Of a stretch of DNA of 64,000 bases, positions 5,736-41,667 are shown one piece after another (position 1 is the stretch's first letter; each line of letters opens with the position of its first letter). The notes below the pieces were generated by a model. It did no database searches. It saw only the letters and a list, made by a program, of their open reading frames with translations, and was not told the DNA's origin. The stretch comes from an uncultured Candidatus Saccharibacteria bacterium. Lineage in GTDB: Bacteria; Patescibacteriota; Saccharimonadia; Saccharimonadales; JAUPVS01. Position numbers and translations under genes: made by a program. The DNA is taken from assembly GCA_964410185.1 (NCBI GenBank), contig CAYPFM010000003.1, positions 85,534 to 149,533 of the forward strand, in the 5' to 3' direction.

Positions 5736-6707
5736 TTAAGGTTTGACGATGGGGTGGATGACGATGGGCATCGAATGGAGGGGCGCGCCGATCGAGAGGA
5801 TGCCGGCTTTGGCACCGATTTTACTGACCACGCTGGTTGAGTTGGCACTAGCGAAGGTAATTGCCTCTTCCATCGACTTGCCGGCGGCCAGGGCGGCCAC
5901 AAACCCGCTGCTGAAGGCATCACCGGCACCGGTGCGGTCGACAACGGGTACATCATCATACATGCCAGCTTTATAGATTTTTTCGCCGTCACTCGCCACC
6001 GAGCCCCTTGGTCCATCAGTGATAATGACGTATGGGATGTGATTAGCGGCGTGCATCGCCAGCTCTTCGCTGGTTTCGCCCCGGAAGAGCATCTGGGCTT
6101 CTTCTTTATTGACACTAAGGATGGTGATGTCAGGAATAAGCTTTTTGAAGTCGTGGCCGTGCATCAGTTCGCCCTTACCGGGGTTCACTGCCACCTTGAT
6201 TTTGTGTTTGCGAGCATAGGCAATAATTACTTTGAGGGACTCGTAGTCACCAGATAACGAGCTGACATAGAACCAGTCGGCGGTGGCTTGCTGGAAATCG
6301 TGTGGCTGGAAGTCAAAATCGACCGAAGCACCGCGATACGTTAGGATTGTTCGTTCGCCGTTGGGCGCAAGCAGCAACACCGAATAGCCGGTTTGGGCTT
6401 TTTTGGTGTAGTTAACCAGCTCAGTGTTGACGCCTTCTTTGTGCAGGTCGGCTAAAACTGAATCACCAGCCGGGTCGTGACCAATTTGGCCCATGTAGGC
6501 ACTATGCAGTTCCTGGCGAGCGAAGGTCACGGCCGCATTGGTGGCACCGCCACCGGTGCTAAAGTAGACGCCTTCAATTTCGTTCTTGCTGCCAAAAGCG
6601 AATTCCTCTACTTTTTCACCATCATCATTGTGGGCACGAAAAATTTTGCCGTGCAGAAAGACATCTTGAACGGCTGCCCCAATCGCGATCATGCGTGGCT
6701 TGCTCAT
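5736..6707 (-). CDS. PfkB-family carbohydrate kinase (ribokinase-like; possibly a phosphofructokinase given the adjacent fba)
   Basis: C-terminal PfkB signature DRTGAGDAFSSGFVAALAAG. Lies directly downstream of class II aldolase. Confidence 0.75.
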   Translation of the reverse strand: MSKPRMIAIGAAVQDVFLHGKIFRAHNDDGEKVEEFAFGSKNEIEGVYFSTGGGATNAAVTFARQELHSAYMGQIGHDPAGDSVLADLHKEGVNTELVNYTKKAQTGYSVLLLAPNGERTILTYRGASVDFDFQPHDFQQATADWFYVSSLSGDYESLKVIIAYARKHKIKVAVNPGKGELMHGHDFKKLIPDITILSVNKEEAQMLFRGETSEELAMHAANHIPYVIITDGPRGSVASDGEKIYKAGMYDDVPVVDRTGAGDAFSSGFVAALAAGKSMEEAITFASANSTSVVSKIGAKAGILSIGAPLHSMPIVIHPIVKP

Positions 6708-28585: not shown

Positions 28586-28736
28586 TAAACATATAAAGAG
28601 TGCAGCGAGAGTCCTAGCTCGTCGACCTGCCAGCAACCTACCCTCCGGGCAAGGTGCTCCATCTAGACCCGACATTGTCGGGAAAGATATGATACATCTC
28701 TTATCCTTTCCGGCATATTGTCAGAAAGGTTTTTTA
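28586..28736 (+). ncRNA. SAM-I (S-box) riboswitch with intrinsic terminator ahead of metK
   Basis: The 5' UTR aligns closely to the B. subtilis metK S-box: AUAAAGAG..GCAGCGAGAG...CCAGCAACC...CAAGGUGCU..AUCUAGA...GGGAAAGAUAUGA. The P1 halves CAUAU/AUAUG pair. It is followed by a CCUUUCC...GAAAGG stem plus UUUUUU that abuts the metK ATG. Confidence 0.7.
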
Positions 28737-29864
28737 ATGCCCCAAAACAATAAGCCCTTAACAACCCTATTTACCAGCGAGTCGGTTTGCGCCGGCCACC
28801 CAGACAAAATCGCCGACCGTATTAGCGATGCTATCTTGGATGCTATCTTGGAACAAGATCGTCATGCCCGCACTGGCATCGAGACGATTGCGGGCGCTAA
28901 CCGCGTCTGCCTGTTCGGCGAAATTAACACCACCGCTGAGATTGACTTTGTGGCTATCGCCCGTCAAGCCATCCGTGACCTTGGCTACACCAATCCCGAC
29001 TGGGGTTTTTCGGACCAGTCGCCAATCGAAAACTTCATTCACCACCAGTCGCTCGAAATCGCTCAAGGTACCAATGACGACACTGGCGCTGGCGACCAAG
29101 GCATGATGTTTGGTTTTGCCATCGATGAGACGCCGGAATTGATGCCGCTGCCGATTGCCCTCGCCCACGCGCTCACCCGCCGCTTAGACGAAGTTCGCGA
29201 GAAAGGTATCGTCTCGTTCGTCCGACCGGACGGCAAAAGCCAAGTAACCGTGGAATACCAGGATGCCAAACCGGTTGGCGTGAAAACAGTGGTGGTAGCC
29301 ACGGCACACGACGAAGCCACCTCAGAAAAAAACGTCAAAGCCGCCATCTATAAAGAAGTGGTGACGCCGGTTTTGAAAGACTACGGCTTTGCAATACCGG
29401 CCAAGGATTTAATCGTCAACGGCACCGGCCTCTGGCACATCCCTGGCCCAGACAGTGATGCCGGCCTGACCGGCCGCAAGATCGTGGTCGACACCTACGG
29501 CGGCTATGCCCGTGTTGGTGGCGGTGCTTTTAGCGGCAAAGACCCCAGCAAGGTTGACCGCAGCGGTGCCTATGCGGCACGATACATCGCCAAGAACATC
29601 GTGGCCGCCGGACTGGCTAGCAAGTGTGAGGTCGGTTTGGCCTACGTTATCGGTCAGGCTAAGCCACTCATGAAGACTATCGACGTCTTTGGCACCGGCA
29701 ATGTGCCGCAAGCGGAAATTGAATCGTTTGCCGACGGCCTACTCGATACGTCGGTTAAGGGAATTGTTACCAAGCTGGACTTGCGCCGACCGATCTACCA
29801 GCAAACCAGCGCCTATGGACACTTTGGAAAAGCTGGCCTGCCGTGGGAAGTTGTGCGGGCTTAA
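28737..29864 (+). CDS. metK: S-adenosylmethionine synthetase
   Basis: [20 protein letters not shown] and [19 protein letters not shown] motifs. The start is ATG MPQNN. Confidence 0.95.
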
Positions 29865-29865
29865 T

Positions 29866-30618
29866 TTATAAGAAATACTTTTCGCTAATCTGGGCTAGGC
29901 CGTCTTCATGCACCGAAGGACCAATCTCGTCAGCTTGTTCTTTCAAGACGGTTTGGGCATTACCGATAGCAATCCGATGACCGGTCGCTTTAAAAATCGG
30001 CAGGTCATTGGCACTATCGCCAACACCAATCACTTCGGACTTATTAAGACCTAGGGAATCAATCAATACTTCAATGCTGTGCTGCTTGGTAGCCTCGGCA
30101 TGCGTAATGTGAACATCAACCATGTTAGCAGTCCATGAGGGTGTGGTGTGGGCAATTGTGTCGGGAATTTTGGCGATATCGTCAACCAGTTTAGCGGCCT
30201 GCCCTGCTGGCACCGAGAGGGCGTAAACGACCGAGGCGGTATGTTTGTGCTTACGATATTCTGTAAGCGGAATGGCTGCTGAAATAGGGTTAACGTCCAG
30301 CAGGGTTTCTGATTGATACTTGGCAACTTGTTCGAGGATGGCCTCAATCTGAGTAATCGACATCGACTTACTCCAAATAATTTCATCCGTTTTGGGGTTG
30401 ATAATTGCCGTGCCAGCCGAAAGCACACTTGGTGCGACGAGGCCGAGACTGGTGAAGATAGGACGGGCGACCTCATACGAACGACCGGTTGCCGCCGACA
30501 CATTAACCGTCTTCTGGGCCGCTGCAATCGCCGCCTGCAAGCGAGAACTGGCGGTCATACTGCCAAGTGGCACCGCCGTACCATCAATGTCAAAAACAAT
30601 TGCCCTGTACTTCATCAC
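29866..30618 (-). CDS. Cof-type HAD-IIB family hydrolase
   Basis: FDIDGT motif I, with C-terminal GDSANDLPIF motifs III/IV. Confidence 0.8.
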   Translation of the reverse strand: MMKYRAIVFDIDGTAVPLGSMTASSRLQAAIAAAQKTVNVSAATGRSYEVARPIFTSLGLVAPSVLSAGTAIINPKTDEIIWSKSMSITQIEAILEQVAKYQSETLLDVNPISAAIPLTEYRKHKHTASVVYALSVPAGQAAKLVDDIAKIPDTIAHTTPSWTANMVDVHITHAEATKQHSIEVLIDSLGLNKSEVIGVGDSANDLPIFKATGHRIAIGNAQTVLKEQADEIGPSVHEDGLAQISEKYFL

Positions 30619-31073
30619 ACTATCATAACAGATGTGGGGGTGCTAAAAATGACCTTGGCTAGCTCCGCTTTGTCATAGGTCGGGTTGGTGTCGGCTGCCA
30701 GGAACTCCTCCTTGGTGAACCAGGCCCACTTTTCGACGTGCTCGGTTTTGGTGATTTGATCGGCTGGAACCGTTACCTTAAAGTAGATGTTCATGCGTGG
30801 GATGCCATCAACAATCTTGCCGATGTTGTAATGAGCAATTTCAAAGTCACACGAGATAGATGCTGCTGGGACACCAAGCTCTTCTTGGAGCTCCCGTACC
30901 AGGCTGGTTTGGATTGTTTCGCCATAATCGACACCACCACCGGGTACTGCCCACCACCTGTCAACATCGTATTCTTTGACCAGCAAAACTTTTTGGTCCT
31001 GCACAACCAAAGCGCGGGCGGCCACGCGGTAGAGGCAATCATCAATATCACTAAGGCGGGGATCAGGTTGCAT
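30615..31073 (-). CDS. NUDIX hydrolase
   Basis: Nudix box PGGGVDYGETIQTSLVRELQEELGV. The conserved leaderless promoter motif lies immediately upstream. Confidence 0.8.
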   Translation of the reverse strand: MQPDPRLSDIDDCLYRVAARALVVQDQKVLLVKEYDVDRWWAVPGGGVDYGETIQTSLVRELQEELGVPAASISCDFEIAHYNIGKIVDGIPRMNIYFKVTVPADQITKTEHVEKWAWFTKEEFLAADTNPTYDKAELAKVIFSTPTSVMIV

Positions 31074-31093
31074 GCGTTAACTATAGCAAATTG
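31074..31093 (-). promoter_or_regulatory. Conserved leaderless extended -10 promoter motif, copy 1 (TTTGCTATAGTTAACGC-ATG)
   Basis: The plus strand reads cat-gcgTTAACTATAGCAAA. This is TGcTATAGT followed by a 6-nt spacer that abuts the ATG. Confidence 0.55.
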
Positions 31094-31128
31094 GGCACGC
31101 TTGTTTGAATCGGCGTACACTTAATACC

Positions 31129-31586
31129 ATGAACGACCACCTAAAGTCCTGGCTGTTTGTACTCACCCAAGCTGTGCTACTTGTTTTGCTGATATTTTTT
31201 GCCAAGGGCACTCCCCCCCACCACCTGCGGTAAATCTGCTTGGTAAGGTCATCCAAGTAATTGGTTGGGCAATATTACTGGTCTCGTTTTATGACCTACG
31301 GAAGTCGCTCACAGCGCTGCCGATGCCAACAAAACGTGGTGTGCTGCAAGTTCATGGTTTGTACAAATTCGTGCGGCACCCCATGTACGTGGGCGTGCTG
31401 ACTTTGTCGCTAGGAATCGCCATGTCCGGTGGTGGCTTTTTCAAATACGCGCTGGTGCTGGCACTGTATATCTTGTTTCGTTTTAAGGCTCGGTATGAAG
31501 AAACTTTATTGATCGCTAAATATCCGGACTACAAAGCCTACATGCACAAAACCGGCCGCTTTATACCGCGGCCGCCCAAGCACTAA
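31129..31586 (+). pseudogene. Isoprenylcysteine carboxyl methyltransferase (ICMT/PEMT)-family membrane methyltransferase, frameshifted in a C7 tract
   Basis: Frame 1 gives MNDHLKSWLFVLTQAVLLVLLIFFAKGTPPHHLR-stop. In the -1 frame, ...PPPPAVNLLGKVIQVIGWAILLVSFYDLRKS...VRHPMYVGVLTL...EETLL continues through the track ORF 31323..31586. A single extra C in the CCCCCCC run (about 31212-31218) would restore one roughly 152-aa ORF. Confidence 0.5.
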
Positions 31587-31843
31587 ACATCGTAAGTGAC
31601 CTGGACGTGATTTTTGTTGATACCGTTGACGAGGTTGGTGTAGCCCATACTTCTTAATATGTTGATTGAAGCGTTGGAACGGCTGCCCGATAGGCAGTAG
31701 ACCACCAGTTCGGTGTCCTTGGGAGCGCCTTCTAGCGCTTTAGCACCAGCCATTAGCTCTGATGGCGGAATGTTGATGGCTCCCTGTACGTGGCCAGTGG
31801 CGAACTCGTCCGGTTCGCGGACGTCGATGAATAGTCTTTGCAT
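31583..31843 (-). CDS. Rhodanese-domain sulfurtransferase (single domain)
   Basis: 86 aa with the active-site loop VYCLSGSRS and the DVREPDEF motif. Promoter motif copy 2 lies directly upstream. Confidence 0.75.
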   Translation of the reverse strand: MQRLFIDVREPDEFATGHVQGAINIPPSELMAGAKALEGAPKDTELVVYCLSGSRSNASINILRSMGYTNLVNGINKNHVQVTYDV

Positions 31844-31863
31844 AGCTTAACTATAGCAAACCT
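31844..31863 (-). promoter_or_regulatory. Conserved leaderless promoter motif, copy 2 (TTTGCTATAGTTAAGCT-ATG)
   Basis: Plus strand: cat-agcTTAACTATAGCAAA. Confidence 0.55.
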
Positions 31864-31895
31864 TGATCAACGCGACATGCTATGATGTTGGTAAT

Positions 31896-32231
31896 ATGGC
31901 TTTGATTATTGCACTCCCGCTGCTTGCCTTCACTATTGCTGGCCTGTTTGTAGGGCGCATGCTGCCACCAAAAACACAGCGAATTATTATCATTACGCTC
32001 TCCTTACTGCTGGCCATCGCTCACTTTTATCTGGCTGGCCAGCAGCTGAGCACCACTGGCTTTATCGCCCGCCAAAGGAACCCCGACTACTTTGCCTACT
32101 ACACTGGCTACGGTTTGGCCGCGGCTGGACTACTGAACGTAGCGGTCTGCTTTAAAAGCCGGCTAGTCAGTGGCGTTTTGCTAGCCGCAATGATTGTGTT
32201 GCTGCCGGTATTCTATTTAGCTACTTGGTAA
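31896..32231 (+). CDS. Hypothetical small membrane protein (3-4 TM)
   Basis: Hydrophobic ORF. The start is uncertain (the track ORF begins at 31863). Confidence 0.4.
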   Translation: MALIIALPLLAFTIAGLFVGRMLPPKTQRIIIITLSLLLAIAHFYLAGQQLSTTGFIARQRNPDYFAYYTGYGLAAAGLLNVAVCFKSRLVSGVLLAAMIVLLPVFYLATW

Positions 32232-32289
32232 CTTGGCTTCCAAATAACTTCGATGGACTTTTTGGTGTCATCAAACTACGGCACTAATC

Positions 32290-32317
32290 AAAAAAGCAGC
32301 CTTTGCTGCTTTTTTGT
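32290..32317. terminator. Bidirectional rho-independent terminator
   Basis: AAAAAAGCAGC-cttt-GCTGCTTTTTT: a perfect 6-bp GC-rich hairpin flanked by an A-run and a T-run. Confidence 0.6.
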
Positions 32318-32341
32318 GGTATCTCAGTTTTGCAACTAAGT

Positions 32342-32371
32342 TTGCGAACCAGATCGTACCAATAATATAAT
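32342..32371 (+). promoter_or_regulatory. Sigma70-like promoter upstream of the tRNA-like gene
   Basis: TTGCGA-N18-TATAAT. The predicted TSS is about 90 nt upstream of the tRNA-like element. Confidence 0.45.
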
Positions 32372-32468
32372 CTGTTCAGCGTTTGATTTCAAGTATTCTC
32401 GCGCGAGTTAAGAAGCATTTAATAATCATTCGATACGATACATATGCCTGGTGCTTGGTTTACCCGCC

Positions 32469-32541
32469 GGGGGTACAGACTGGTGTCGCGATTGGGTTTG
32501 CGAGCCAGATCGGCCGGGTTCGATTCCCGGTGCCTCCACCA
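32469..32541 (+). tRNA. tRNA-Ala(UGC)-like gene with an atypical, shortened D-arm (possibly degenerate)
   Basis: The acceptor strands GGGGGUA and UGCCUCC pair over 7 bp and include a G3.U70 wobble. The anticodon loop is UUUGCGA (UGC). The T-arm is canonical, CCGGG-UUCGAUU-CCCGG. The discriminator is A and CCA is encoded. The D-region is only about 13 nt and the 31-39 pair is G-G. An 8-bp leader/trailer complementarity GCCUGGUG...CACCAGGC flanks the element. Confidence 0.5.
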
Positions 32542-32559
32542 GGCGAAATCGTTAACTTT

Positions 32560-32579
32560 CGCAGCCCAACTATAGCAAA
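32560..32579 (-). promoter_or_regulatory. Orphan copy of the conserved promoter motif (TTTGCTATAGTTGGG, no ATG downstream), overlapping the stop codon of the 32570..33775 gene and abutting the tRNA-like 3' end
   Basis: Plus strand: gcagcCCAACTATAGCAAActgcg. The CTATAG core carries the TAG stop of the metallopeptidase-like gene. On the minus strand it points antisense into the tRNA-like element. Confidence 0.3.
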
Positions 32580-33775
32580 CTGCGCACAAAGCCTGGTATT
32601 GCCTCAGTCGCTTCGTCATATTCGGCGTCGGCCATGAGGTTGCCGAGCTCTGTGAGCACATTACGTCCCGGGAATGCGCGAGCTAATTGGCGCTTGAGCT
32701 TGCGCTGGGCCGTCTGTCGCCGGCTGGTTGAATCTTCAAAGTAGGCGTTTATAAACAGTTTTATGTCGACGGGCTTCTTACCGCCGTTACAGAGGACATT
32801 CAGCAATTCCCGTTCTGGACGATAGGAACTCAACAGGTGGCGCTGTGATTCAGGATCGACAGTTTGTATGTCCGAACCGTAATAGCCCATGTTTAAGGCG
32901 ACGTGCTCGGTGACGGCTTCGTTGAGGGCCTGGCCAGCATTCTTGTGATCCTTATCAAATAAGCGATACAGTCCATGGTGTATGACGTCATCACCAAATC
33001 GACCTTGGTCGTTCTTGCCCGGCAGTTCAACCCCCACCATCACGTGCGTCAACTCATGCGCAATCGTTTTGGGAAATGAATATTGTGGCAGAAAGACCTC
33101 TTTTGACGAACCGTTTCGGTGCGTACTGGTGAATGCTGATGCGCCGTTTTCGTGCAGAAGCAAGCCGTCATCCATCGTGATATTAATATGTTCTAGTGTT
33201 TCAATTCGTTCTGGTTTGAGCACGGCTTCGGGCATCCAACCCTCTCTTGTCGCCTGTTTTAGATTACGGACATACTCACGTTTATGCCAAGGCCACTCCT
33301 GGTCCATAAAGCGCTGGCGGTTTGCTGCTACCTGCCAACTATGCCATTGCAAAAAGTTTAACAGGGCATCGTCTGCAACTGCTGGCGTTCCATCCGGATT
33401 GGCTTGGGCTAAGCGCTCAATAGCCAAGTGGCTATATTCAACCCCTAGTATATTCATTAAAAACTCTGGTACTTTGGTCTGCACCAAATCGAAACTGACT
33501 CGGGATAGTTGTTTTGGCTCAACTTCAGCCAGACGGTTGCGCACTTCCTGCAGATAATGTGTCATGCTCGTTTCAGCTGGCGGCAACTCATAATCCAGCC
33601 AGGGTTCAGCATCAACGAGAATGACCGCTCTGGCCAAATCACCTTGGACAGCAAACTGACCAATGGTATTACAAGAGTCCGGTGCGAACTCAGCTTCTAG
33701 CGCCTCGCACCGGGCGTCAAACTGCGCGTGTAACTCTATAGGGATTCCGTCTTCGACCGAAGTAGACATCCACAT
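32570..33775 (-). CDS. Putative zinc-dependent metallopeptidase (HExxH)
   Basis: 401 aa with the motif AHELTHVMVG. TAAAAT lies directly adjacent to the ATG, so the true start may be the second ATG (MSTSVED). Confidence 0.5.
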   Translation of the reverse strand: MWMSTSVEDGIPIELHAQFDARCEALEAEFAPDSCNTIGQFAVQGDLARAVILVDAEPWLDYELPPAETSMTHYLQEVRNRLAEVEPKQLSRVSFDLVQTKVPEFLMNILGVEYSHLAIERLAQANPDGTPAVADDALLNFLQWHSWQVAANRQRFMDQEWPWHKREYVRNLKQATREGWMPEAVLKPERIETLEHINITMDDGLLLHENGASAFTSTHRNGSSKEVFLPQYSFPKTIAHELTHVMVGVELPGKNDQGRFGDDVIHHGLYRLFDKDHKNAGQALNEAVTEHVALNMGYYGSDIQTVDPESQRHLLSSYRPERELLNVLCNGGKKPVDIKLFINAYFEDSTSRRQTAQRKLKRQLARAFPGRNVLTELGNLMADAEYDEATEAIPGFVRSLL

Positions 33776-33908
33776 ATTTTAGCATGTTTTGGGGTTTTTG
33801 TCGAGGGTTACTGCAGTAAAATCTTTACTGACCGGGCAGGACGTCTAGCCACAAACTTTGTATTTTTACGAGTTTTGTTGTATTATATACCGAAGTATAG
33901 ATTTATTT

Positions 33909-35060
33909 ATGATTAAAGTTGACACCCTCCAAACCCTGGCGCAACATCTTGATTTTGAGTTTAATCCAGATGTGTGTGCTGTTTCTAAGCCAAATTGGGC
34001 AAGTCGCTACCCAAGAGCTGCAATTGCTGAAGTTGGCGAGACGCGCTATGCCGATTTTGTTGTCGAGCCCCACAAACGGCCAAGCTACAGCCCCGACCGC
34101 GTCAGTGGTGTGGTTGAGGAAAACCTCGATTGGCAAGAGGAACAGGAATGGGCTAACGAAGCGGAGCCAGATGACGCGCATGATAAAACGCTCCATGGTT
34201 TGATTGAAGATCGCAAGGGCTACATTGCGCTGTACTCGGAATACAACGCGCTCGATAATCTTTACAGTTTTGAGTTAGTAAACGGTGCGAACGGTGCCAA
34301 TGCCGTACACCAGCTGCTTGGGCGAACCCCCAGCGTTGACATACCAGAATACGTGACAAGCAAGGCCAACCTGAATCCAAGCGGAATTTTTACTGCCGGC
34401 CAAATTACAGAAAATATTGCCGAAATGAAGATGCTGGTTCCGAATGTTAATGACTTCTACTTTACTAGACATGACCTTGGCACGGGAGGCTTTTATCATG
34501 GGCCGTCTTGGCCTAACACGACCCCTGTCATTTACCGCCACCTGTCGAAGGTGGCGCAAGACGTCGTTAAAGAAAACGGTGGACGCATCCATTGCACGGA
34601 AGCCGTGGCTGGTGGCGATGCTCGTCCGCAAGAGGTCGTTGTCATCGCCAAAGCTCTCGACGACTTAATTGCCCGCGTCAAACCAAGCATTGATGCGTTG
34701 GCAGTTGCAGAACTTCGTATCCGCGACGGTCGCTATGACACAGTCAGTGATGCCGAAATTGCCCACAAACTCCTTTGGAGTGCCTTCGGCCGGGCCCGTA
34801 CCAGCCAATCACGCATCGGCAAAAACTTGCTTGCGGTCACGCCAGAGACTCCCGACAGTGAGCGGGACCGTCGTGGCTACTGGATTGGCATGCAACTCGA
34901 GGCCGGCGTGATTGACACCAGACTGGCCCTGCACGAAGTCCGCCCCCACCCCGAAGCCACCGACGCCCAAACCCTCCGAGCACTCAACATCTTGCACATA
35001 CTCAAGACCGAATACGACCGCCGCTTTGCCGACAACAAAGACCAGTTATTAGTGGCGTAA
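33909..35060 (+). CDS. Hypothetical protein (about 383 aa); the only plus-strand gene in the cassette region
   Basis: Intact ORF. TATAGA-N7-ATG at MIKVDTL suggests a leaderless start. No recognised domain. Confidence 0.45.
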   Translation: MIKVDTLQTLAQHLDFEFNPDVCAVSKPNWASRYPRAAIAEVGETRYADFVVEPHKRPSYSPDRVSGVVEENLDWQEEQEWANEAEPDDAHDKTLHGLIEDRKGYIALYSEYNALDNLYSFELVNGANGANAVHQLLGRTPSVDIPEYVTSKANLNPSGIFTAGQITENIAEMKMLVPNVNDFYFTRHDLGTGGFYHGPSWPNTTPVIYRHLSKVAQDVVKENGGRIHCTEAVAGGDARPQEVVVIAKALDDLIARVKPSIDALAVAELRIRDGRYDTVSDAEIAHKLLWSAFGRARTSQSRIGKNLLAVTPETPDSERDRRGYWIGMQLEAGVIDTRLALHEVRPHPEATDAQTLRALNILHILKTEYDRRFADNKDQLLVA

Positions 35061-35126
35061 GGCTCATGGGTTACCTACCATATTACTACCAGGGCATTCT
35101 AGGATTATTAAATCGTCCTGTAGCCG

Positions 35127-35513
35127 TTACTGCCGTTCAATCAATAACTTCAACTTGTTCAACGCTTCCATGGTCAGCGGATTCGTGAGCTCGCCAACTT
35201 CGACCCACTCGGTATATTGCAGTTCGGTGGCGCTATCACCCTTGGGTGTATAGATGTACTCAACGCGGTAGTCACCTGTCGACTGGGTTAGTTCAAACAA
35301 CTCGTTGAGCTTGAACCGAGTAACCTCGTAGTCAGTCCAGCCGCCGCTGTGGCCACGGTTCTTGTATTTGGTGCCAAGCCGTACCGGCCACTCGCTAGTT
35401 TGCTCCTCTGCCATGGTGCTAATCCAAGCCGGCGTGTTCGCCGGATTGATTGAAGCCTCAAAAACCTCGGCAATCGGCTTGTTGATAATGACGGTGAGAG
35501 TTTTCTTGTTCAT
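35127..35513 (-). CDS. SRPBCC (Bet v1/polyketide-cyclase-like) domain protein
   Basis: 128-aa pattern with N-terminal beta strands and a C-terminal helix. The call is weak. Promoter motif copy 3 is directly upstream. Confidence 0.45.
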   Translation of the reverse strand: MNKKTLTVIINKPIAEVFEASINPANTPAWISTMAEEQTSEWPVRLGTKYKNRGHSGGWTDYEVTRFKLNELFELTQSTGDYRVEYIYTPKGDSATELQYTEWVEVGELTNPLTMEALNKLKLLIERQ

Positions 35514-35533
35514 AGCTTAACTATAGCACCCCT
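35514..35533 (-). promoter_or_regulatory. Conserved leaderless promoter motif, copy 3 (GGTGCTATAGTTAAGCT-ATG)
   Basis: Plus strand: cat-agcTTAACTATAGCAcc. Confidence 0.5.
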
Positions 35534-36419
35534 AGTTGCCCATAGCCTCAACGCCGAGTTTGATGTAGTGATCTCGGTAGCGCCGGCCGCGGACGGCGTG
35601 CCAGGTGGCGCAGGCACCACAGACCCAGGCGATGGCTCGGTACATATTCTGCAGCTCTTCGGCGCTAAGTGGATGTGTTGCTTTAGAATCGTAGCCCTTG
35701 GCAAGACCAGCAACTACCTCCTCGGCAGCAAAGTCCGAGTTAAACCGGATTGACGTGTAGGTGCGGCCCAAGTCGATGATGCGCGCTGTTCGTTCGGCGG
35801 TTTCTAGGTCGAATACGGCCGTCACGGTGCCGTCTTCGGCAAAAATATTGCTGAGCCATAGATCACCATGAATAATTGCCTCCGGTAGCCCCAGCTCAAA
35901 AATTTTGGAGCCGTAGTCGACCATTTTGGTAAGCACGTCTTTGGTTTCACCGTCGTATGGGTCAAGGTCGGCATGCACTTTTTTGGGGCTCAGCCACTGC
36001 ATGTCGTTTTCGGGCACAGTCATGCCATCCAAACAGTCGTGCAGCATCGCAAGCATTGCGCCTAAACTTTGTATCAGGGTTGGCGTCACCTTCCGTGGTG
36101 TGCTCCCGGGGATGTATTTACTAAGCAAGAACTTCTCGTCATGGTGTTGGCCAACATGGTTGCCAGGGGTAATCTCCAGGTATTCCGGCGTACGGAGGCC
36201 AGCCGCCAGCATGCGTTGCTGCATCTGAACTTCGCCGGCGATGGCCTCGGGGTGCTGCTCATTAAGTATCTTTAGAAAGTAGTGTTCCCCATCTGACGTC
36301 GTAATATCAAACACCTCATTCAAAAACGCCTCGGTACTTTTCGTGGCAGTCACCACATCAGCATCCGAGTATTCATGAAACAAGTTGTTGAGTCGCGAGA
36401 GGTCTGTCATTTGAGTCAA
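35532..36419 (-). CDS. Aminoglycoside/choline-kinase-family phosphotransferase (APH-like)
   Basis: Brenner motif IIHGDLWLSNIF and a DFG-like VFDLETA..IIDLG. The substrate cannot be called. Confidence 0.65.
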   Translation of the reverse strand: MTQMTDLSRLNNLFHEYSDADVVTATKSTEAFLNEVFDITTSDGEHYFLKILNEQHPEAIAGEVQMQQRMLAAGLRTPEYLEITPGNHVGQHHDEKFLLSKYIPGSTPRKVTPTLIQSLGAMLAMLHDCLDGMTVPENDMQWLSPKKVHADLDPYDGETKDVLTKMVDYGSKIFELGLPEAIIHGDLWLSNIFAEDGTVTAVFDLETAERTARIIDLGRTYTSIRFNSDFAAEEVVAGLAKGYDSKATHPLSAEELQNMYRAIAWVCGACATWHAVRGRRYRDHYIKLGVEAMGN

Positions 36420-36439
36420 TTATAGCAGGGCGTGCCCAT
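36420..36439 (-). promoter_or_regulatory. Degenerate copy of the leaderless promoter motif, copy 4 (CCTGCTATAATTGACTCAA-ATG)
   Basis: Plus strand: cat-ttgagtcaATTATAGCAgg. The -10 box is TATAAT. Confidence 0.4.
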
Positions 36440-36478
36440 CAGCCACCGCCGGAGGTTAGCAGTAACTCCTTAGCGTAC

Positions 36479-37036
36479 CTACAACCCCAGTCGTTCCTTA
36501 ATAACCTGCACCACTTCCGGGAACTCGGTTTTTTCGTAGTCGCCACCAAAGTGGCCTTTGTCGGTATACTCGCGGTAATCGGTCTTTAGTTGTTCGTGAA
36601 TGTGACGGGCTTCGGCAATTGGTATCCACGGATCGTCGGTCGAGGCAAACTGCACAATCCAGTTTTGGTTGGCCTTAATTTTTTGCCATTGCCAGGGGCG
36701 GTTGTAGTAGCCGCTGGCTTTTTCGTCTTTATCGCCAAGGTCGGTATGGCAGGCGCCAATCAGAATTGATCCATACAGGTGATGGTTTTCGGCATAACGC
36801 ATAGCCGCCACCGCACCCGAGGAGTGTCCAATAATAATGGTGTTTTCGTCGGCATGCAGTACGTCGTCTAAATACGGCAGCCACTCGCTTTCGCGAGCCA
36901 GCATATTATCGGGCATAGTTGGCGTGGCAACTTTAAGGCCCAGCTTTTCGAGCTCCCGCTTGACGCGCGGGAACCACAGTCCATCGCCTGTGCCGCCGCC
37001 GTTGCCATGAATGAGGATTACTTTGGGTAGTTTCAT
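36479..37036 (-). CDS. Alpha/beta hydrolase, YdeN/RBBP9-like serine hydrolase
   Basis: GHSSG nucleophile elbow, DPW and GHF motifs. A paralog sits at 45277..45819. Confidence 0.7.
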   Translation of the reverse strand: MKLPKVILIHGNGGGTGDGLWFPRVKRELEKLGLKVATPTMPDNMLARESEWLPYLDDVLHADENTIIIGHSSGAVAAMRYAENHHLYGSILIGACHTDLGDKDEKASGYYNRPWQWQKIKANQNWIVQFASTDDPWIPIAEARHIHEQLKTDYREYTDKGHFGGDYEKTEFPEVVQVIKERLGL

Positions 37037-37056
37037 AGGTTAACTATAACAAAAAA
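37037..37056 (-). promoter_or_regulatory. Conserved leaderless promoter motif, copy 5 (TTTGTTATAGTTAACCT-ATG)
   Basis: Plus strand: cat-aggTTAACTATAACAAA. Confidence 0.5.
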
Positions 37057-37064
37057 CCGTAACT

Positions 37065-37448
37065 TCAACTTTCATTCTTGAATGGCTGCACGGCTTGCTG
37101 CAGTTCCTCTAAAGAATTATAGCGAGCGTGGTCGAGCAGCACCGGCGCAAATTCTTTAAAAATGGCCGTTTCTTCGTCCTCGGTCACAAACAGATAAAAC
37201 TTGTGCTCCTTGCCACCAGTAACGTCAGGGCGAGCCACTTGAAAGTAGCCAAAGATGTCGCCATCTTCGCCAACAAAGACATCCAGAGGATGGCCGTCTT
37301 CGCCGGTGAAGCCGTCGATGTCGCCATAGCTTACCGGATATGTCACGCCCTTCAGTGGATACGGATCACCTTCGGCGACCTGAAAGTCCTTATATTCGCC
37401 GGGCTGTTTTTCGAGTCGAAATGTATTGAAAGGTTCGGGGAGTTTCAT
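37065..37448 (-). CDS. Hypothetical protein with inorganic-pyrophosphatase-like acidic motif
   Basis: 127 aa. DGHPLDVFVGEDGD resembles the PPase DGDPLDVLV motif, but the protein is too short for a full PPase. Confidence 0.4.
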   Translation of the reverse strand: MKLPEPFNTFRLEKQPGEYKDFQVAEGDPYPLKGVTYPVSYGDIDGFTGEDGHPLDVFVGEDGDIFGYFQVARPDVTGGKEHKFYLFVTEDEETAIFKEFAPVLLDHARYNSLEELQQAVQPFKNES

Positions 37449-37468
37449 GGGTTAACTATAGCAAACAG
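37449..37468 (-). promoter_or_regulatory. Conserved leaderless promoter motif, copy 6 (TTTGCTATAGTTAACCC-ATG)
   Basis: Plus strand: cat-gggTTAACTATAGCAAA. Confidence 0.55.
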
Positions 37469-37478
37469 GTGTTCCGAC

Positions 37479-38147
37479 CTACCTGTTAACTAACTTTCCA
37501 CCCTCAATAATAATCGGCTCGCTACCGATCGTATAAACCTCGTCGCCATCCACAACTACCGCGTTATCATCACGCAAGCCATAAACTTTACCCTCAAACG
37601 TACCAACAGCCTCAATGAGGCTTTCCTTGCGATTAGGAAAATATGGTGAATCGAGATGCGGCATGACCGAGAGGTTAACGAGGCCGGTGTAGTCGGAGAT
37701 ATCGTATTTACTGTCTTCGTCGTAGATCAGCCGATAGGCTGCTTCGGATATACGTTTGCCGGCGACCATCGAGCCAGCGCTGCTGCCGACGTAAACCTTC
37801 GTCTCCAGAAGCTTAGGTAGCAGCTTATCAAAACCGGTTTTTTGGTAGATAGTCATTAGATAGTCGGTGTCGCCACCAATCACAAAGATAACGTCTTTGT
37901 CGGCCAATCGCTCTTCAACTTCTGTAATAGAAAGTGCCAGCAAGTCGACGATATCTAGCTCGGCTGGAAAGTTCTTGGCAACTGAGTTGAGGTTATCTAG
38001 CACCCAACGTTTATCGCCCCGTTCAACGGCAAAAGCTTCGTTGATAATGCCCACGCTAATTTGGTCTTGCGGTTTACCAACCAGCTTAACGCAGGCCTCA
38101 ACGGTATTTGAAGTATGAAAGCCTTCGGAGCAGAGTACGAACTTCAT
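37479..38147 (-). CDS. Peptidase S51 family (dipeptidase E / cyanophycinase-like)
   Basis: GGDTDYLM and the GSSAGSMV nucleophile motif. Confidence 0.7.
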   Translation of the reverse strand: MKFVLCSEGFHTSNTVEACVKLVGKPQDQISVGIINEAFAVERGDKRWVLDNLNSVAKNFPAELDIVDLLALSITEVEERLADKDVIFVIGGDTDYLMTIYQKTGFDKLLPKLLETKVYVGSSAGSMVAGKRISEAAYRLIYDEDSKYDISDYTGLVNLSVMPHLDSPYFPNRKESLIEAVGTFEGKVYGLRDDNAVVVDGDEVYTIGSEPIIIEGGKLVNR

Positions 38148-38167
38148 AGGTTAACTATAGCAAATAA
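38148..38167 (-). promoter_or_regulatory. Conserved leaderless promoter motif, copy 7 (TTTGCTATAGTTAACCT-ATG)
   Basis: Plus strand: cat-aggTTAACTATAGCAAA. Confidence 0.55.
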
Positions 38168-38195
38168 TCACCGGGCCTGCCCTGCTACCCGCCAC

Positions 38196-38948
38196 CTAAG
38201 ACTTATGCAAACTTGCGTACTCAGTGGTCAACTCGCCATTCGAGAGGTTGGCTTTGGTTTTTTCAGAAACCTGGTTCTCTTTACCCTTAACTCGTTTGTG
38301 AACCTCTAGGATTGGCGTTCCAGTTAACTTAATACCTCTGAACGTAAAGTTACCCTTACTGTCAGTTTTTGCTCGTTTTATCTTTTTGCCATTAACTGCC
38401 AGAACTACTTCCGCGTTTGGTGAATACTGACCCCAGACATCGTATTTATCTTTTTTCTTAGTTTTGCCGATACCTGTTAGCTTGGCTTGAGGACGAATTC
38501 GGATACCTTTTACGATTATCTTATCTGTTGCAACTGAAGCAATCTCGGTTTTTAGAAAAAGACGTGAAACTTCTTTGCCGTCGTTGTACGTTACTTTGGC
38601 ATGGTTACGCTTTACGCCATTTTGGCCTTCGGTTTTTACTTTGGAGTAGTCGTCGTATTCGTGGCTATCATATTCTGTTCGTGTATTGAATGCGAGTGGT
38701 TGGTCTTCCGTAACCTCAGCCTCGGTGACCACGGGTTTCGCTGGAGCAACTGGTGTACTTTGCTCGGAAACATCTGGGCATTCAGAGGTATAGCCCAAAT
38801 CTCCACAAACATAGCTGCCAGTATCACTGGGGCAGGAATGCCATCGATGACACCCGCTCCGGTGAGCGCTTGCCGACGCAACATTTATCGTCAATAAACC
38901 AAATAGGATTGAAAGGGTCCCGAGCCCAACCAGCATCACGCGCTTCAT
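38196..38948 (-). CDS. Secreted protein with Cys/His-rich N-terminal motif and C-terminal Ig-like domain
   Basis: Signal peptide MKRVMLVGLGTLSILFGLLTINVASA, then HRSGCHRWHSCPSDTGSYVCGDLGYTSECPD, and a C-terminal TDSKGNFTF Big-like strand pattern. TATACT-N6-ATG suggests a leaderless start. Confidence 0.5.
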   Translation of the reverse strand: MKRVMLVGLGTLSILFGLLTINVASASAHRSGCHRWHSCPSDTGSYVCGDLGYTSECPDVSEQSTPVAPAKPVVTEAEVTEDQPLAFNTRTEYDSHEYDDYSKVKTEGQNGVKRNHAKVTYNDGKEVSRLFLKTEIASVATDKIIVKGIRIRPQAKLTGIGKTKKKDKYDVWGQYSPNAEVVLAVNGKKIKRAKTDSKGNFTFRGIKLTGTPILEVHKRVKGKENQVSEKTKANLSNGELTTEYASLHKS

Positions 38949-39218
38949 ATTTGTAGTATAGGACTATTACGATAAATAGCTAGTCTTCGCCACCCAGATT
39001 CTCGGTGTGCCGCTGCAGCAACAGCACCTCGCCCTCGCCATTAAACACAAAGGCGGTCGATAGCCTTGGCAATCTCGATCGCCTTATTATCACCCCAGGC
39101 TTGCAGTCGCTGCTTCATGGGGTTGAGTATAGCATGTGCTCTTTTTTTTCTCTCTCGTTGGAGGATATACTTCACAGCTCTTTTGAACACACAGCAAAAG
39201 AGCCGTTAGAAGAAAAAC

Positions 39219-41519
39219 TTAGTTTGTGCTTTCGTCAATAATTCTAAAGTGTTCTGGGGAGATTGTTTTTATCATATCAAGCATTTCAGCCACAGCACGC
39301 TTAGTACCTGTTACCAATGCAGGATCAAAGCCAGAACCGGTTATGTGAGACTGGTCATTTATGAACTTATATATTGCGTCTAATTTATCTTTATCGTAGC
39401 CACTTGCTTTTAGGGCGATGATTTTCTTATAAGCATTCTCTCCGCTCGGGACGCTAAACATTGTGAAGGTGTCCCAGACTTTTCTGGCGATGTTGGGTAT
39501 AGGATATGCCTTTGCGATCGTATCATCCTGGGAATCGCGAAGCTGCTTTAAAGTTTTGAAAAGATAGTGGTACTCGCTTTCATGTTCTCGCAACTCCTTG
39601 TCCATAAGCTCTAAGTGGGCATTCCGATCATCTCCATCAAAAGTATTCTTGATCATGAAAAAGCCACAATCACTACCGTGGTTGTTATTTTGCTGCCAAT
39701 TGAGTAGTAGTTTCAAAAAATCAAAATTGTGCGTGAGTATGAAGCATTGACCAGCGTCAGCTACAGCATTCTTCAAGAAGCTAAATGCTTGGTATAGAGA
39801 ATTTGAGTCGAGACTGGAAATCGGATCATCAATAACAACGATGCCATCTTGAACATCAAAATCATCACCACCTAGATGAACTACAAAATATACAAATGCT
39901 ATCGCAGTTTTTTCGCCCTCACTAAGATTTGTCGCTAAGTCTTTCCCGCGAAGTATGTCGTAGCCCCTACTAACTTTGACTTTTTGCCCATATTCATCCT
40001 CTTCAATTTCTATATGCGGCTGGAACTGAAGCTCTTTGTGCCCTAAGAACATTATGAGTTTTTCATTGATATGATCGCATGCTTTATGGTCAGAAGATAT
40101 TTGTGCACGTGCTTGTGTAATCATCTCGTTAAGGGCGGTAATCTCGATATCCAGCTGATCGGCTTCCTGGATAGCCACATCTTTACTTTGCTTAAGAGCC
40201 TTAACCTCATCAAATATACCGCTTAGGAAGTGTTGCTTGAGTTTTGTGGTTGCTGATTCTTTAACTGCATCAAAATCAGCGGTTGTATCGTTGTGGACCT
40301 TTATAACCTTATTAGCTCTTTCAATCACTAAAGTAAGCTCGTCAAGCCTAAGACCGGGTTCAAGATTAATCCTCTCTGTTGTTTTAGCTTTTTTATTGCG
40401 AACGTCTGTTTCAAGTTGTTTAATGTCAGCCAATAGGTTTGTTTTTGCAGCAGCAAAGCCCTTGGTGTCTTTAGAAAATCCGTTTTGTAAATTACCATAG
40501 AGCCTGGTCTTATCAGGCAGCTCGATCTCATTAATAATTGTCCTCACACCAGCTAGTTTTCTCAACAGCTCGTCAAGACTGTCCTTAAGTTTTCTGTCTG
40601 CTTCATTGAAGTGTTTTGCTAAATCGGAAATCCTGGACAGCGGGATTGGCTGCCGACAGTATTCGCATTTGGCAGAATGGTGTGCGGCATGAATGGCGAT
40701 ACCCGTTTCAACCCAAGTAGATATGTCAGAATTATCACTTAACCTCTTGATGGTATTTGCCTCAACAGTCTGCGCTAATAAACGTACAGCCTCATCTGAC
40801 AACTCTTGAAGGAGTGTTGTGGGGTCTTTTTCCTCTCCTGCTACAACTAATTTTCGGAGCGCAAGTTTTTTAACAACCGGTTGCGACTCTTGCTTTACAG
40901 CAACAAGGTACTTATCGAGATCGTCCTGACTAAGCTCGGCTTTGCCTTTGAGTTCTTTAAAATCTGCATCTGCTTGCTGACGTCGATAGGTTCGGAGCGC
41001 GTTACCACCCATAGCCGTGCCGATAGTCTTAGCAATGTCAGTGAACTTAGTTTCATATAATGTTTTATCCTGTTTTGCCTTTGCCCGCTTAGACTTTAAA
41101 AGGGAGACTTTGCCGGGCACATCAGGCGTTTCTGGATCGCCTTGTAGCTCTTTTTGATATTTCTCAATCTGTTCAATCAATTCCTTATTTTCTTCTCCGA
41201 GCAGAATGGAGATTGAGTTTGCTCTACTATCAAGAATCTTCACATTCTTTTCAATATAATCTTGATTAAAAATGCGGATTTTTTCAGGGTAGGCGTCAGC
41301 TTGCGTATACTTATTGCCAGCTTCGTCTTCGACTTCATATTCAAGTCCTGGCAACGGATTGCCGCCAATACCATCATATAATCGTGTTAACGTTGTTTTA
41401 CCACAACCGTTCCAGCCATATATGAGGTTTGCTTTCTTGAAGTAAGAAAGCCGTGCAGGTCGATTGTAATCCTTGAATACAAGCCCCAAATTCCTAATTT
41501 TGTTCACTTTCTTGATCAT
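39219..41519 (-). CDS. RloC-like ABC/Rad50-type ATPase with CxxC zinc hook and C-terminal putative anticodon-nuclease domain (defence / abortive-infection candidate)
   Basis: Walker A GWNGCGKTTL sits near the N-terminus. A roughly 450-aa coiled-coil insertion contains CEYC. The ABC signature LSEGEK, Walker B VVIDDPISSLD and H-loop LTHN follow, then an extra C-terminal domain of about 150 aa. The gene is markedly AT-rich compared with its neighbours. The start is the ATG at MIKKVNK (the track ORF begins at an upstream TTG). Confidence 0.55.
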   Translation of the reverse strand: MIKKVNKIRNLGLVFKDYNRPARLSYFKKANLIYGWNGCGKTTLTRLYDGIGGNPLPGLEYEVEDEAGNKYTQADAYPEKIRIFNQDYIEKNVKILDSRANSISILLGEENKELIEQIEKYQKELQGDPETPDVPGKVSLLKSKRAKAKQDKTLYETKFTDIAKTIGTAMGGNALRTYRRQQADADFKELKGKAELSQDDLDKYLVAVKQESQPVVKKLALRKLVVAGEEKDPTTLLQELSDEAVRLLAQTVEANTIKRLSDNSDISTWVETGIAIHAAHHSAKCEYCRQPIPLSRISDLAKHFNEADRKLKDSLDELLRKLAGVRTIINEIELPDKTRLYGNLQNGFSKDTKGFAAAKTNLLADIKQLETDVRNKKAKTTERINLEPGLRLDELTLVIERANKVIKVHNDTTADFDAVKESATTKLKQHFLSGIFDEVKALKQSKDVAIQEADQLDIEITALNEMITQARAQISSDHKACDHINEKLIMFLGHKELQFQPHIEIEEDEYGQKVKVSRGYDILRGKDLATNLSEGEKTAIAFVYFVVHLGGDDFDVQDGIVVIDDPISSLDSNSLYQAFSFLKNAVADAGQCFILTHNFDFLKLLLNWQQNNNHGSDCGFFMIKNTFDGDDRNAHLELMDKELREHESEYHYLFKTLKQLRDSQDDTIAKAYPIPNIARKVWDTFTMFSVPSGENAYKKIIALKASGYDKDKLDAIYKFINDQSHITGSGFDPALVTGTKRAVAEMLDMIKTISPEHFRIIDESTN

Positions 41520-41667
41520 TCTCAACTCAACTTGCAAACTTACATATTAGATGTTGCTTCTAGTATACTCTGGTGACCCTTGAAAGTCAGGCTACACCAG
41601 CAGGAGTTGTACCAGCCAAAATATGCTCTACTGTTGTTCGAGATACTACCAGATCTAATCTTGGAGC

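Follow-up and report, generated by a model that had tools for sequence, protein, structure and literature searches.

Recurrent extended -10 blocks directly ahead of start codons in a Saccharibacteria gene array: a likely case of leaderless promoters

Described leaderless promoters and the Saccharibacteria array

Leaderless bacterial genes have been formalised as the 'group C' of GeneMarkS-2 (PMC6028130) and as 'TA-led' genes (PMC3160421). In group C, which comprises Actinobacteria and Deinococcus-Thermus, a Pribnow box is located approximately 10 nt upstream of the start codon (PMC6028130), and in Deinococcus deserti differential RNA sequencing placed 47% of the mRNA starts precisely at the start codon, where a -10 element lies directly upstream and a -35 element is missing (PMC4007540). 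Here, we analysed a stretch of 64,000 nt from an uncultured Candidatus Saccharibacteria bacterium (contig CAYPFM010000003.1, positions 85,534 to 149,533; "the window" in the following, whereby all positions are those of the window), in which a 14-nt block, TTTGCTATAGTTAA, is repeated ahead of an array of small enzyme genes on the minus strand and is likely to represent a promoter of this leaderless type.

As in group C, a TAnnnT hexamer is located 6-8 nt before the ATG, there is neither a -35 element nor a Shine-Dalgarno (SD) sequence, and leaderless and SD-led genes occur in one genome. The share of leaderless-type genes amounts to approximately 40% in the window, according to a crude count, compared to 47-60% in D. 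deserti (PMC4007540), which is, by analogy, the closest experimentally grounded parallel. The window differs from group C in its phylum (Saccharibacteria/Patescibacteria), in a much stronger TG extension (~70%), and in the exact recurrence of one 14-bp word in several genomes and classes of the phylum, with even the normally free positions -13, -8, and -6 to -4 conserved (position +1 being the A of the ATG). The extended -10 promoters of Gram-positive bacteria (Bacillus, Streptococcus) follow the pattern 'TRTGn TATAAT', known as the -16 region. The block shares with them the TnTGnTATAnT architecture without a -35 element, whereas it directly adjoins the start codon, so that the transcript would have no leader, and its hexamer is TATAGT, followed by TAA. 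In its layout only, the array also resembles the cassette arrays of integrons, with unrelated small genes in one orientation, short conserved boundaries, and a content that varies among genomes. Integron cassettes are usually promoterless and carry attC hairpins at their 3' end. In contrast, the conserved element of the array is located at the 5' end and has the anatomy of a promoter, and no integrase, attI, or attC-like inverted repeat was found in the window array.

Our literature search yielded no description of leaderless genes or promoters in Saccharibacteria or in the Candidate Phyla Radiation (CPR). A promoter survey including N. lyticus used starts that had been derived indirectly from RNA sequencing coverage, the only set of transcription start sites (TSS) for Saccharibacteria known to us, and noted that the distances between the -10 element and the TSS are variable (PMC12641261). 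The feature described here is of an ordinary kind, namely that of leaderless group C promoters, in a phylum for which no published description was found.

The 14-nt block, its geometry and the genes behind it

Both strands of the window were searched for TTTGCTATAGTTAA with up to two mismatches, and 100 dinucleotide-preserving shuffles served as the null. Eight matches were obtained compared to 0.29 expected, and none of the 100 shuffles reached eight, so the block pattern is real and highly non-random. Seven of the eight matches are on the minus strand, all between 31077 and 38164, whereby four copies are exact (31077-31090, 31847-31860, 37452-37465, and 38151-38164), one has a single mismatch (37040-37053, TTTGTTATAGTTAA), and two have two mismatches (35517-35530, GGTGCTATAGTTAA, and 32566-32579, TTTGCTATAGTTGG; the latter is an orphan copy that is treated further below). 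The eighth match (6402-6415, plus strand, TTTGGTGTAGTTAA) has two mismatches, lacks the A at -11, and is probably due to chance. It is the only match outside the array. A preliminary description of this DNA had stated that the exact motif does not appear to recur elsewhere in the window; within the window, the exact TATAGTTAA form is confined to the array.

In six copies, the block is followed by exactly 3 nt and then by the ATG of an open reading frame (ORF) with a Pfam assignment. In the direction of transcription, these minus-strand genes encode a Peptidase_S51 protein of 222 amino acids (aa) (37479-38147; PF03575, E 5e-25), a small InPase-like protein of 127 aa (37065-37448; PF18823, E 1.4e-5, a weak assignment just under the gathering score), a Ser_hydrolase/YdeN-like alpha/beta hydrolase of 185 aa (36479-37036; PF06821, E 1e-13), an SRPBCC/Polyketide_cyc2 protein of 128 aa (35127-35513; PF10604, E 2e-8), a single-domain rhodanese of 86 aa (31583-31843; PF00581, E 1e-16), and a NUDIX hydrolase of 152 aa (30615-31073; PF00293, E 2e-18). 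The three nucleotides between block and ATG are CCT, CCC, CCT, GCT, GCT, and CGC, respectively, with a pyrimidine at -1 in 6/6 copies. Since the block contains an in-frame TAA at -6 to -4, longer N-termini are excluded for all six ORFs. The copy ahead of the InPase-like gene occupies a 30-nt intergenic gap, and the one ahead of the SRPBCC gene begins 2 nt past the stop codon of a gene for an APH-family phosphotransferase of 292 aa (35532-36410, minus strand; PF01636, E 2e-20). The latter had been counted in the preliminary description as a seventh gene with the block, together with the six that we recovered; its promoter, however, is the variant TGCTATAAT (36419-36427, minus strand), located 8 nt ahead of the ATG, and thus differs in sequence and spacing. 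The APH start is backed by a 100%-identical database protein (P0001), and homologs are named Candidatus Saccharimonadales bacterium. Nor are the genes consecutive, as had been stated, because the run is broken by plus-strand genes (31323-31586, 31863-32231, and 33909-35060), by a tRNA-like gene, and by a gene for an HExxH protein. From the S51 gene via the InPase-like, Ser_hydrolase, and APH genes to the SRPBCC gene, the gaps measure 18-45 nt. No convincing terminators were found between the array genes, and terminators were not enriched over shuffles.

The block is composed of T-17, T-15, and G-14 ('TnTG', the -16 region), the hexamer TATAGT at -12 to -7, and TAA at -6 to -4, which is the position of an A/T-rich discriminator. 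The TG at -15/-14 is present in all seven blocks as well as in the variant promoters of the APH, HExxH, and HAD genes, but not in that of the G5-domain gene (see below for the latter three), and upstream of -17 the copies share no sequence. Pairs of -35 and -10 elements are not enriched, with 10 promoter-like sites in the region compared to 10.0 in shuffles. Also, there is no GGAG-like SD core in the 6 nt (TAA and N3) between the hexamer and the ATG of the block genes; clear GGAG-type SD sites are found at other genes of the window, e.g., at 14058, 16747, 17286, and 44537. Because the leaderless reading is supported by the geometry, by the lack of both SD and -35 elements, and by the strong comparative data presented below, each block is likely to be an extended -10 promoter of the sigma-70/sigma-A type, without a -35 element, from which transcription would start on the A of the ATG or 1-2 bases from it. 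The preliminary description had arrived at the same extended -10 with its start on the ATG, and this part is upheld by the evidence given here. We infer the coincidence of TSS and ATG, as well as sigma-A as the reader, from the geometry.

Promoters with the same geometry are also present at genes in and next to the array that do not carry the block. The HExxH (HELTH) protein, a putative metallopeptidase without a Pfam match (32570-33769, minus strand), has a start region of the form TGCTAAAAT-ATGTGG-ATG, in which the extended -10 (33776-33784, minus strand) is located 6 nt ahead of the second ATG at 33769, so the N6 spacing fits this second ATG. A conserved gene of 383 aa without a Pfam match (33909-35060, plus strand), which is convergent with the SRPBCC gene and has a homolog in locus L094 (53-55% identical), starts with TATAGA-N7-ATG, and the gene for a G5-domain secreted protein of 250 aa (38196-38948, minus strand; PF07501, E 5e-18) is preceded at 6 nt by TCCTATACT (38955-38963, minus strand), a -10 element without TG. 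These three variants are as given in the preliminary description, except that the 33909 ORF is on the plus strand. Directly downstream of the array NUDIX gene, a HAD (Hydrolase_3) phosphatase gene of 249 aa (29866-30615, minus strand; PF08282, E 3e-33) has the N6 spacing as well, whereby its extended -10, TGTTATGAT (30622-30630, minus strand), lies within the 3' end of the NUDIX gene. The NUDIX stop codon TGA and the HAD start codon ATG share one base (GTGATG, 30613-30617). With this arrangement, coupling and an internal leaderless promoter of its own may both contribute to the expression of the HAD gene.

In the window as a whole, both strands together hold only 32 TANNNT-N6-ATG sites, and at 25 of these an ORF of 80 aa or more begins. 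When 68 non-overlapping window ORFs were sorted crudely by start type, 29-32 of them had a leaderless-type -10 element, which is the share of ~40% quoted above, and 12 had an SD sequence; the remaining 24 with neither are mostly internal operon genes. Leaderless-type genes with N6 spacing outside the array include uvrB (TGGTACAAT-N6), rmuC, a DAG-kinase-family gene, an MFS transporter gene, a gene for a DUF2207 membrane protein, and a second NUDIX gene, whereas N7-N8 spacing adds pheS, two ABC transporter genes (one encoding an ABC ATPase), and a glycoside hydrolase gene. The housekeeping genes among them use TACAAT, TATACT, or TATAAT. The best matches of the window core genes are loci of Saccharibacteria metagenome-assembled genomes (MAGs) (PheS 55%, PheT 45%, RmuC 48%; UBA6039), which, like the APH homologs, assigns the DNA to a Saccharibacterium (TM7, Patescibacteria/CPR). 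At nine starts (33769, 22862, 24701, 25637, 48522, 50929, 53993, 57066, and 60716), a shift to a downstream ATG is likely, as this ATG is located 6-7 nt from a TG-extended -10 and the resulting proteins are shorter than the longest-ORF calls; for these nine genes, the longest-ORF start is probably wrong.

In the proposed mechanism, a sigma-A-type holoenzyme would recognise the extended -10 element and initiate at the A of the start codon. The mRNA would then begin with 5'-AUG, and ribosome and initiator tRNA would bind this 5' AUG directly, whereby it is the absence of an SD sequence that suggests the leaderless route of translation. An ORF inside a read-through transcript would have no ribosome-binding signal, and since the gaps are tiny and lack clear terminators, each gene would need its own promoter adjacent to the start codon. 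The array would thus present itself as nested units, each of them expressed independently. The near-identity of the copies would mean that the block is close to a phylum-wide optimum for Saccharibacteria/Patescibacteria: with all promoter information held within ~14 bp, strong promoters would converge on almost one word. Here, we infer convergence by selection as the cause of the near-identity.

The word in other genomes and competing explanations

One genome per GTDB species was scanned for TTTGCTATAGTTAANNNATG, which yielded at least 118 loci. Among the matches listed, at least 34 loci belong to Saccharibacteria/Saccharimonadia and at least 17 to other Patescibacteria (Microgenomates and Parcubacteria lineages). 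If both groups are pooled, 49 of the 54 occurrences in the CPR loci listed are followed by an ORF of 79 aa or more; of the five that are not, two run off the end of the fetched locus. For other phyla, 38/55 occurrences among the matches listed are followed by an ORF of at most 36 aa, as expected for chance, and the word is there mostly a chance occurrence. Overall, there are at least 45 further Saccharibacteria/Patescibacteria genomes in which the exact 14-mer followed by N3 and ATG marks the start of real ORFs, and its link to true gene starts is phylum-wide. The genes behind the motif are diverse: the 65 proteins that follow the word (up to two mismatches) in the CPR loci listed represent 77 Pfam families, with NUDIX occurring four times, G6PD, T2SSE (type II/IV secretion) ATPase, SpoU methylase, HIT, HD, GNAT, and MFS twice each, and GAPDH, aldo-keto reductase, aminotransferase, histidine phosphatase, and a Mur-type ligase also represented; a guanylate-kinase-like N-terminus was noticed by eye. 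The tRNA genes of related loci are preceded by TGCTATAAT or TGCTATGAT, which have a TGCTATnAT core. From these data, the word reads as a general promoter of the lineage and not as an island-specific signal. A consensus built from 75 leaderless-type starts in Saccharibacteria loci, with the exact word excluded, shows T-17 in 51%, T-15 in 69%, and G-14 in 72% of the starts, together with a hexamer TAtaaT, whereby TATAGT is the commonest single hexamer. These are the positions of the word, which is therefore close to the lineage consensus.

The scan also led to observations on individual loci. In the CPR loci L083, L044 (7340-7385), L077, L018 (940-965), L038, L046, and L006, a terminator T-run is fused to the TTTG of the word (...gtctttttgTTTGCTATAGTTAA), and the fused T-tract doubles as terminator tail and as promoter positions -17 to -15. 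Long ORFs behind the word are also found in contigs that are not binned as CPR, namely L067 ('Pseudomonadales'), L049 ('Chlamydiae'), L007, L016, and L074. The N-terminus of the T2SSE ATPase of L067 is nearly identical to one from Collierbacteria, and the HAD protein of L049 resembles that of L108; by their sequences, these five are probably mis-binned CPR contigs. Moreover, an identical ORF of 164 aa (MKKKKNNFAFIDGQNLNLG...) is located behind the word in L025, L065, and L082, and common genes are likewise found in L010 and L101, although these MAGs belong to unrelated phyla (Perlabentimonas, Bacillota, and Kosmotogaceae for the former; Lachnospiraceae/Firmicutes for the latter). Such sharing points to a mobile element or phage as a carrier of the promoter form.

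Several findings weigh against ordinary leaderless promoters that have merely converged on an optimum. Among 236 non-seed starts, TATAGT is combined with TTTGC in 7/18 cases compared to 4/218 for the others, and with TA[AG] at -6 to -4 in 9/18 compared to 16/218, so that the block behaves as a discrete word that is more stereotyped than independent positions predict. Given these co-occurrences, convergence on an optimum is not a full explanation for six neighbours sharing the word. In addition, the TATAGTTAA form occurs in none of the other leaderless-type promoters of the window, and it is near-absent in 62 kb of three relatives with 62-64%-identical APH orthologs. Promoters with TTTGCTATACT, TATAAT, or TACACT at N6-N8 are still numerous in the same three relatives, where they precede, among others, trmD and the genes for an ABC ATPase, a Mur ligase, and an HxlR regulator. 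By comparison, the MAG RYN_403 has 11 copies of the word (up to three mismatches) in 24 kb, and one of its contigs harbours a seven-gene array of SRPBCC/AHSA1, cupin, NUDIX, Ser_hydrolase, 2-hydroxyacid dehydrogenase, an unknown gene, and sortase. Such heterogeneity would be produced by a mix of strong near-consensus and weaker promoters, by a dedicated factor, or by transfer from word-rich lineages.

In the preliminary description, the region had been taken for a lineage-specific cassette island whose genes were mobilised together with their promoters. This does not agree with the same geometry at uvrB, pheS, rmuC, and the ABC ATPase gene, with the 77 Pfam families elsewhere, or with an S51 ortholog that has no such promoter. 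A genomic island in general was considered and rejected, as there is no composition shift and no integrase, and the tRNA-like gene lies inside the region instead of marking one of its borders; an island at a tRNA gene was rejected as well, since the arrays in relatives are near different tRNAs (Asp, Glu, and Asn) with no consistent relation. A narrower version would hold that the 14-bp promoter and its ORF form self-sufficient portable cassettes, from which the array was built by repeated acquisition and shuffling, maybe from word-rich lineages. The neighbourhoods of the 62-64%-identical APH orthologs (L300, L301, and L302) differ almost wholly from the window and from one another, with S51 adjoining APH in two of the three, and serine recombinases or a tyrosine integrase are close to the APH orthologs of L301 and L302 (2/3). 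The region is clearly evolutionarily fluid, with gene-by-gene reshuffling at short gaps. Furthermore, the RYN_403 array is analogous with partly different genes (cupin, 2-hydroxyacid dehydrogenase, sortase), the frequency of the word varies greatly among genomes, and InPase-like homologs in L042 and L019, just 40% identical, carry the exact word, whereby these loci were found via the word and are not independent. However, the S51 ortholog of L301, although 82% identical, has no promoter word, and its ATG overlaps the stop codon of a NAD-binding gene located upstream, which shows that the promoter can be separated from the gene. The array copies themselves show no similarity past the 14 bp, no flanking or conserved inverted repeats, and no recombinase among the array genes, the GC content of the 30-38 kb region (0.49-0.535) equals that of the rest of the window, and the APH promoter TATAAT-N8 was kept with its gene in L300 (62% identical ortholog), which points to vertical descent. 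A metagenome scan with an alignment of the 33909-35060 protein, carried out for synteny, gave no confirmed relative. Altogether, we regard such cassettes as distinctly unlikely. In a combined view, TTTGCTATAGTTAA-N3-ATG would be a discrete, phylum-wide expression 'word' of Patescibacteria, its invariant extra positions (C-13, G-8, and TAA at -6 to -4) would be read by a CPR-specific feature of the RNA polymerase/sigma or by a dedicated factor, and word plus ORF would be a minimal portable unit that is shuffled among genomes into variable arrays of small enzyme genes; this, too, we consider unlikely.

The discreteness of the word, which is not the tail of an independent-position matrix, would also fit a regulon signal, i.e., a promoter combined with a site for an alternative sigma factor or for the binding of a repressor or activator (TTnnCTATAGnnAA), by which house-cleaning enzymes are co-regulated. 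Within the window the word is limited to the array while housekeeping genes carry other hexamers, its core CTATAG is palindromic with 10 of the 14 positions self-complementary, stand-alone small hydrolases recur behind it (NUDIX four times, HIT, HD, GNAT), and RYN_403 has a comparable array of SRPBCC, NUDIX, and Ser_hydrolase genes. Yet the left side is conserved as TTTGC instead of TTAAC, an asymmetry that fits the TG of an extended -10 and not a dyad, the hexamer is a normal sigma-70-type -10, the word also precedes genes for G6PD, GAPDH, pilus-type ATPases, SpoU methylases, and a Mur-type ligase, and the Pfam annotation of the window proteins reveals neither a regulator nor a sigma gene within the array or next to it. 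A regulon is therefore quite improbable in our view. The dedicated sigma factor or regulator considered in the preliminary description is not supported either, since tRNA genes of relatives share the TGCTATnAT core and the word is found before housekeeping-type genes. According to the same description, a motif ahead of many housekeeping genes would simply be the consensus promoter, and this is largely what was found in the window and in other CPR genomes. It might also be that the block acts at the RNA level in a polycistronic transcript, either as an RNase site that makes leaderless mRNAs or, through its in-frame TAA-N3-AUG, in ribosome binding without an SD sequence or in re-initiation: with tiny gaps and no convincing terminators, read-through transcripts containing the block are likely, and the block holds stop codons in two frames just upstream of the ATG. 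However, the conserved positions coincide exactly with those of a DNA promoter (T-15 G-14, T-12 A-11, T-7) at the canonical distance from -10 to start, the block also precedes first genes right after terminator hairpins (L083, L044, L077, and L038), and tRNA genes, in which translation is not involved, carry the same core 40-50 nt upstream. This makes an RNA-level signal extremely unlikely, and leaderless extended -10 promoters of the sigma-A type remain the preferred explanation. This explanation accounts less fully for how stereotyped the exact word is and how unevenly it is distributed.

Orphan copy, tRNA-like gene, neighbouring features and implications

The orphan block TTTGCTATAGTTGG (32566-32579, minus strand) has no ATG and encodes the C-terminus ...VRSLL* of the HExxH protein, including its TAG stop codon. 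The preliminary description had correctly reported such a copy on the stop codon of the metallopeptidase gene, whereas the adjoining 'tRNA-like gene' is no tRNA according to ARAGORN. The predicted start of the orphan (~32562) is the first base of a hairpin at 32543-32562 (GCGAAAGTTAACGATTTCGC), which has a perfect 6-bp stem (GCGAAA/TTTCGC), an 8-nt loop, and no U-tract on either strand, and which separates the end of the HExxH gene from a convergent 73-nt RNA gene, whose 3' end faces it. By its position, the orphan would give rise to an antisense transcript of this tRNA-like gene; equally, the orphan may be a relic of a lost downstream gene. A kinship with the copy at L044:7372, suggested by a common ...GGGCTGnAAAG downstream, was judged to be chance, as the L044 copy has a terminator on one side and, on the other, the end of a Fur-like gene in convergent orientation.

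The 73-nt gene (32469-32541, plus strand) is tRNA-like, lacks an anticodon arm, and resembles the tRNA-like domain of transfer-messenger RNA (tmRNA). It has a 7-bp acceptor stem with G3:U70, a canonical T arm, and an encoded CCA, whereby one long irregular hairpin (~34 nt) replaces the D and anticodon arms; its predicted fold has -34.5 kcal/mol with z = -2.3. An ordinary tRNA was rejected because ARAGORN calls none at this position. The local match to the Rfam tmRNA model, at 26.9 bits (E 5e-9), falls short of the gathering score of 47, with both ends aligned and 306 model positions skipped. Thus, of the features of a tmRNA, the tRNA-like domain is present, but the mRNA-like domain (resume codon, tag ORF, pseudoknots) is not. 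Approximately 100 nt upstream, a promoter-like site TTGCGA-18-TATAAT is present (32342-32371). Reduced tmRNAs that consist of the tRNA-like domain only are described from jakobid mitochondria (PMC3590771). The element of the window resembles these in its alanine-type acceptor stem (G3:U70), its T arm, the lack of an mRNA-like domain, and a short closing hairpin, and differs in being bacterial, GC-rich, and below the Rfam gathering threshold for tmRNA.

A structured pattern scan of metagenomes and IMG/VR, in which the pattern itself imposes G3:U70 and the T arm, revealed many similar elements in metagenome and viral contigs; these measure 54-84 nt, are of the alanine type, have no anticodon, and are not tRNAs according to ARAGORN. 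Loci with such elements are found within L119-L299, e.g., L143, L147, L171, L189, L121, L133, and L172, and L239, L262, L264, and L272 are viral. The set is heterogeneous and includes abundant families of 80-83 nt, recurrent in marine and soil samples, with the tmRNA 5' signature GGGG...CTGGnTTCGAC, a short closing hairpin, GGAC, a T arm, and CCTCCACCA. We know of no description of such 80-83-nt elements consisting of the tRNA-like domain only. In a simple tblastn search with an approximate E. coli SmpB query, only L058 was matched, and no SmpB gene was found adjacent to the elements. A match of L107 to the tmRNA-like 3' end was discarded, as it is not a tmRNA according to Rfam and probably represents a tRNA fragment. 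The only Rfam match in the window at the gathering threshold is a SAM (S-box) riboswitch (28588-28693, plus strand; 48.7 bits) directly upstream of metK (28689-29864), which is an ordinary arrangement.

On the other side of the array, between pheT and the array, a segment of low GC content is present (38000-42000; 0.44 compared to ~0.51). It contains a gene for an AAA_13 ATPase of 772 aa (39219-41537, minus strand; PF13166, E 6e-121). The AAA_13 family includes anticodon-nuclease and abortive-infection-type proteins, and the gene may be a horizontally acquired defence gene.

No new kind of mobile element or regulatory system is indicated by the block. If the leaderless reading is true, the 14-mer would be a compact, ready-made strong-promoter part for genetic systems of Saccharibacteria, and the word would serve as a precise marker to correct start-codon calls in CPR genomes as well as a cheap taxonomic signal for mis-binned CPR contigs. 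Saccharibacteria, and the CPR more widely, would then join Actinobacteria and Deinococcus-Thermus as lineages with a large share of leaderless genes.

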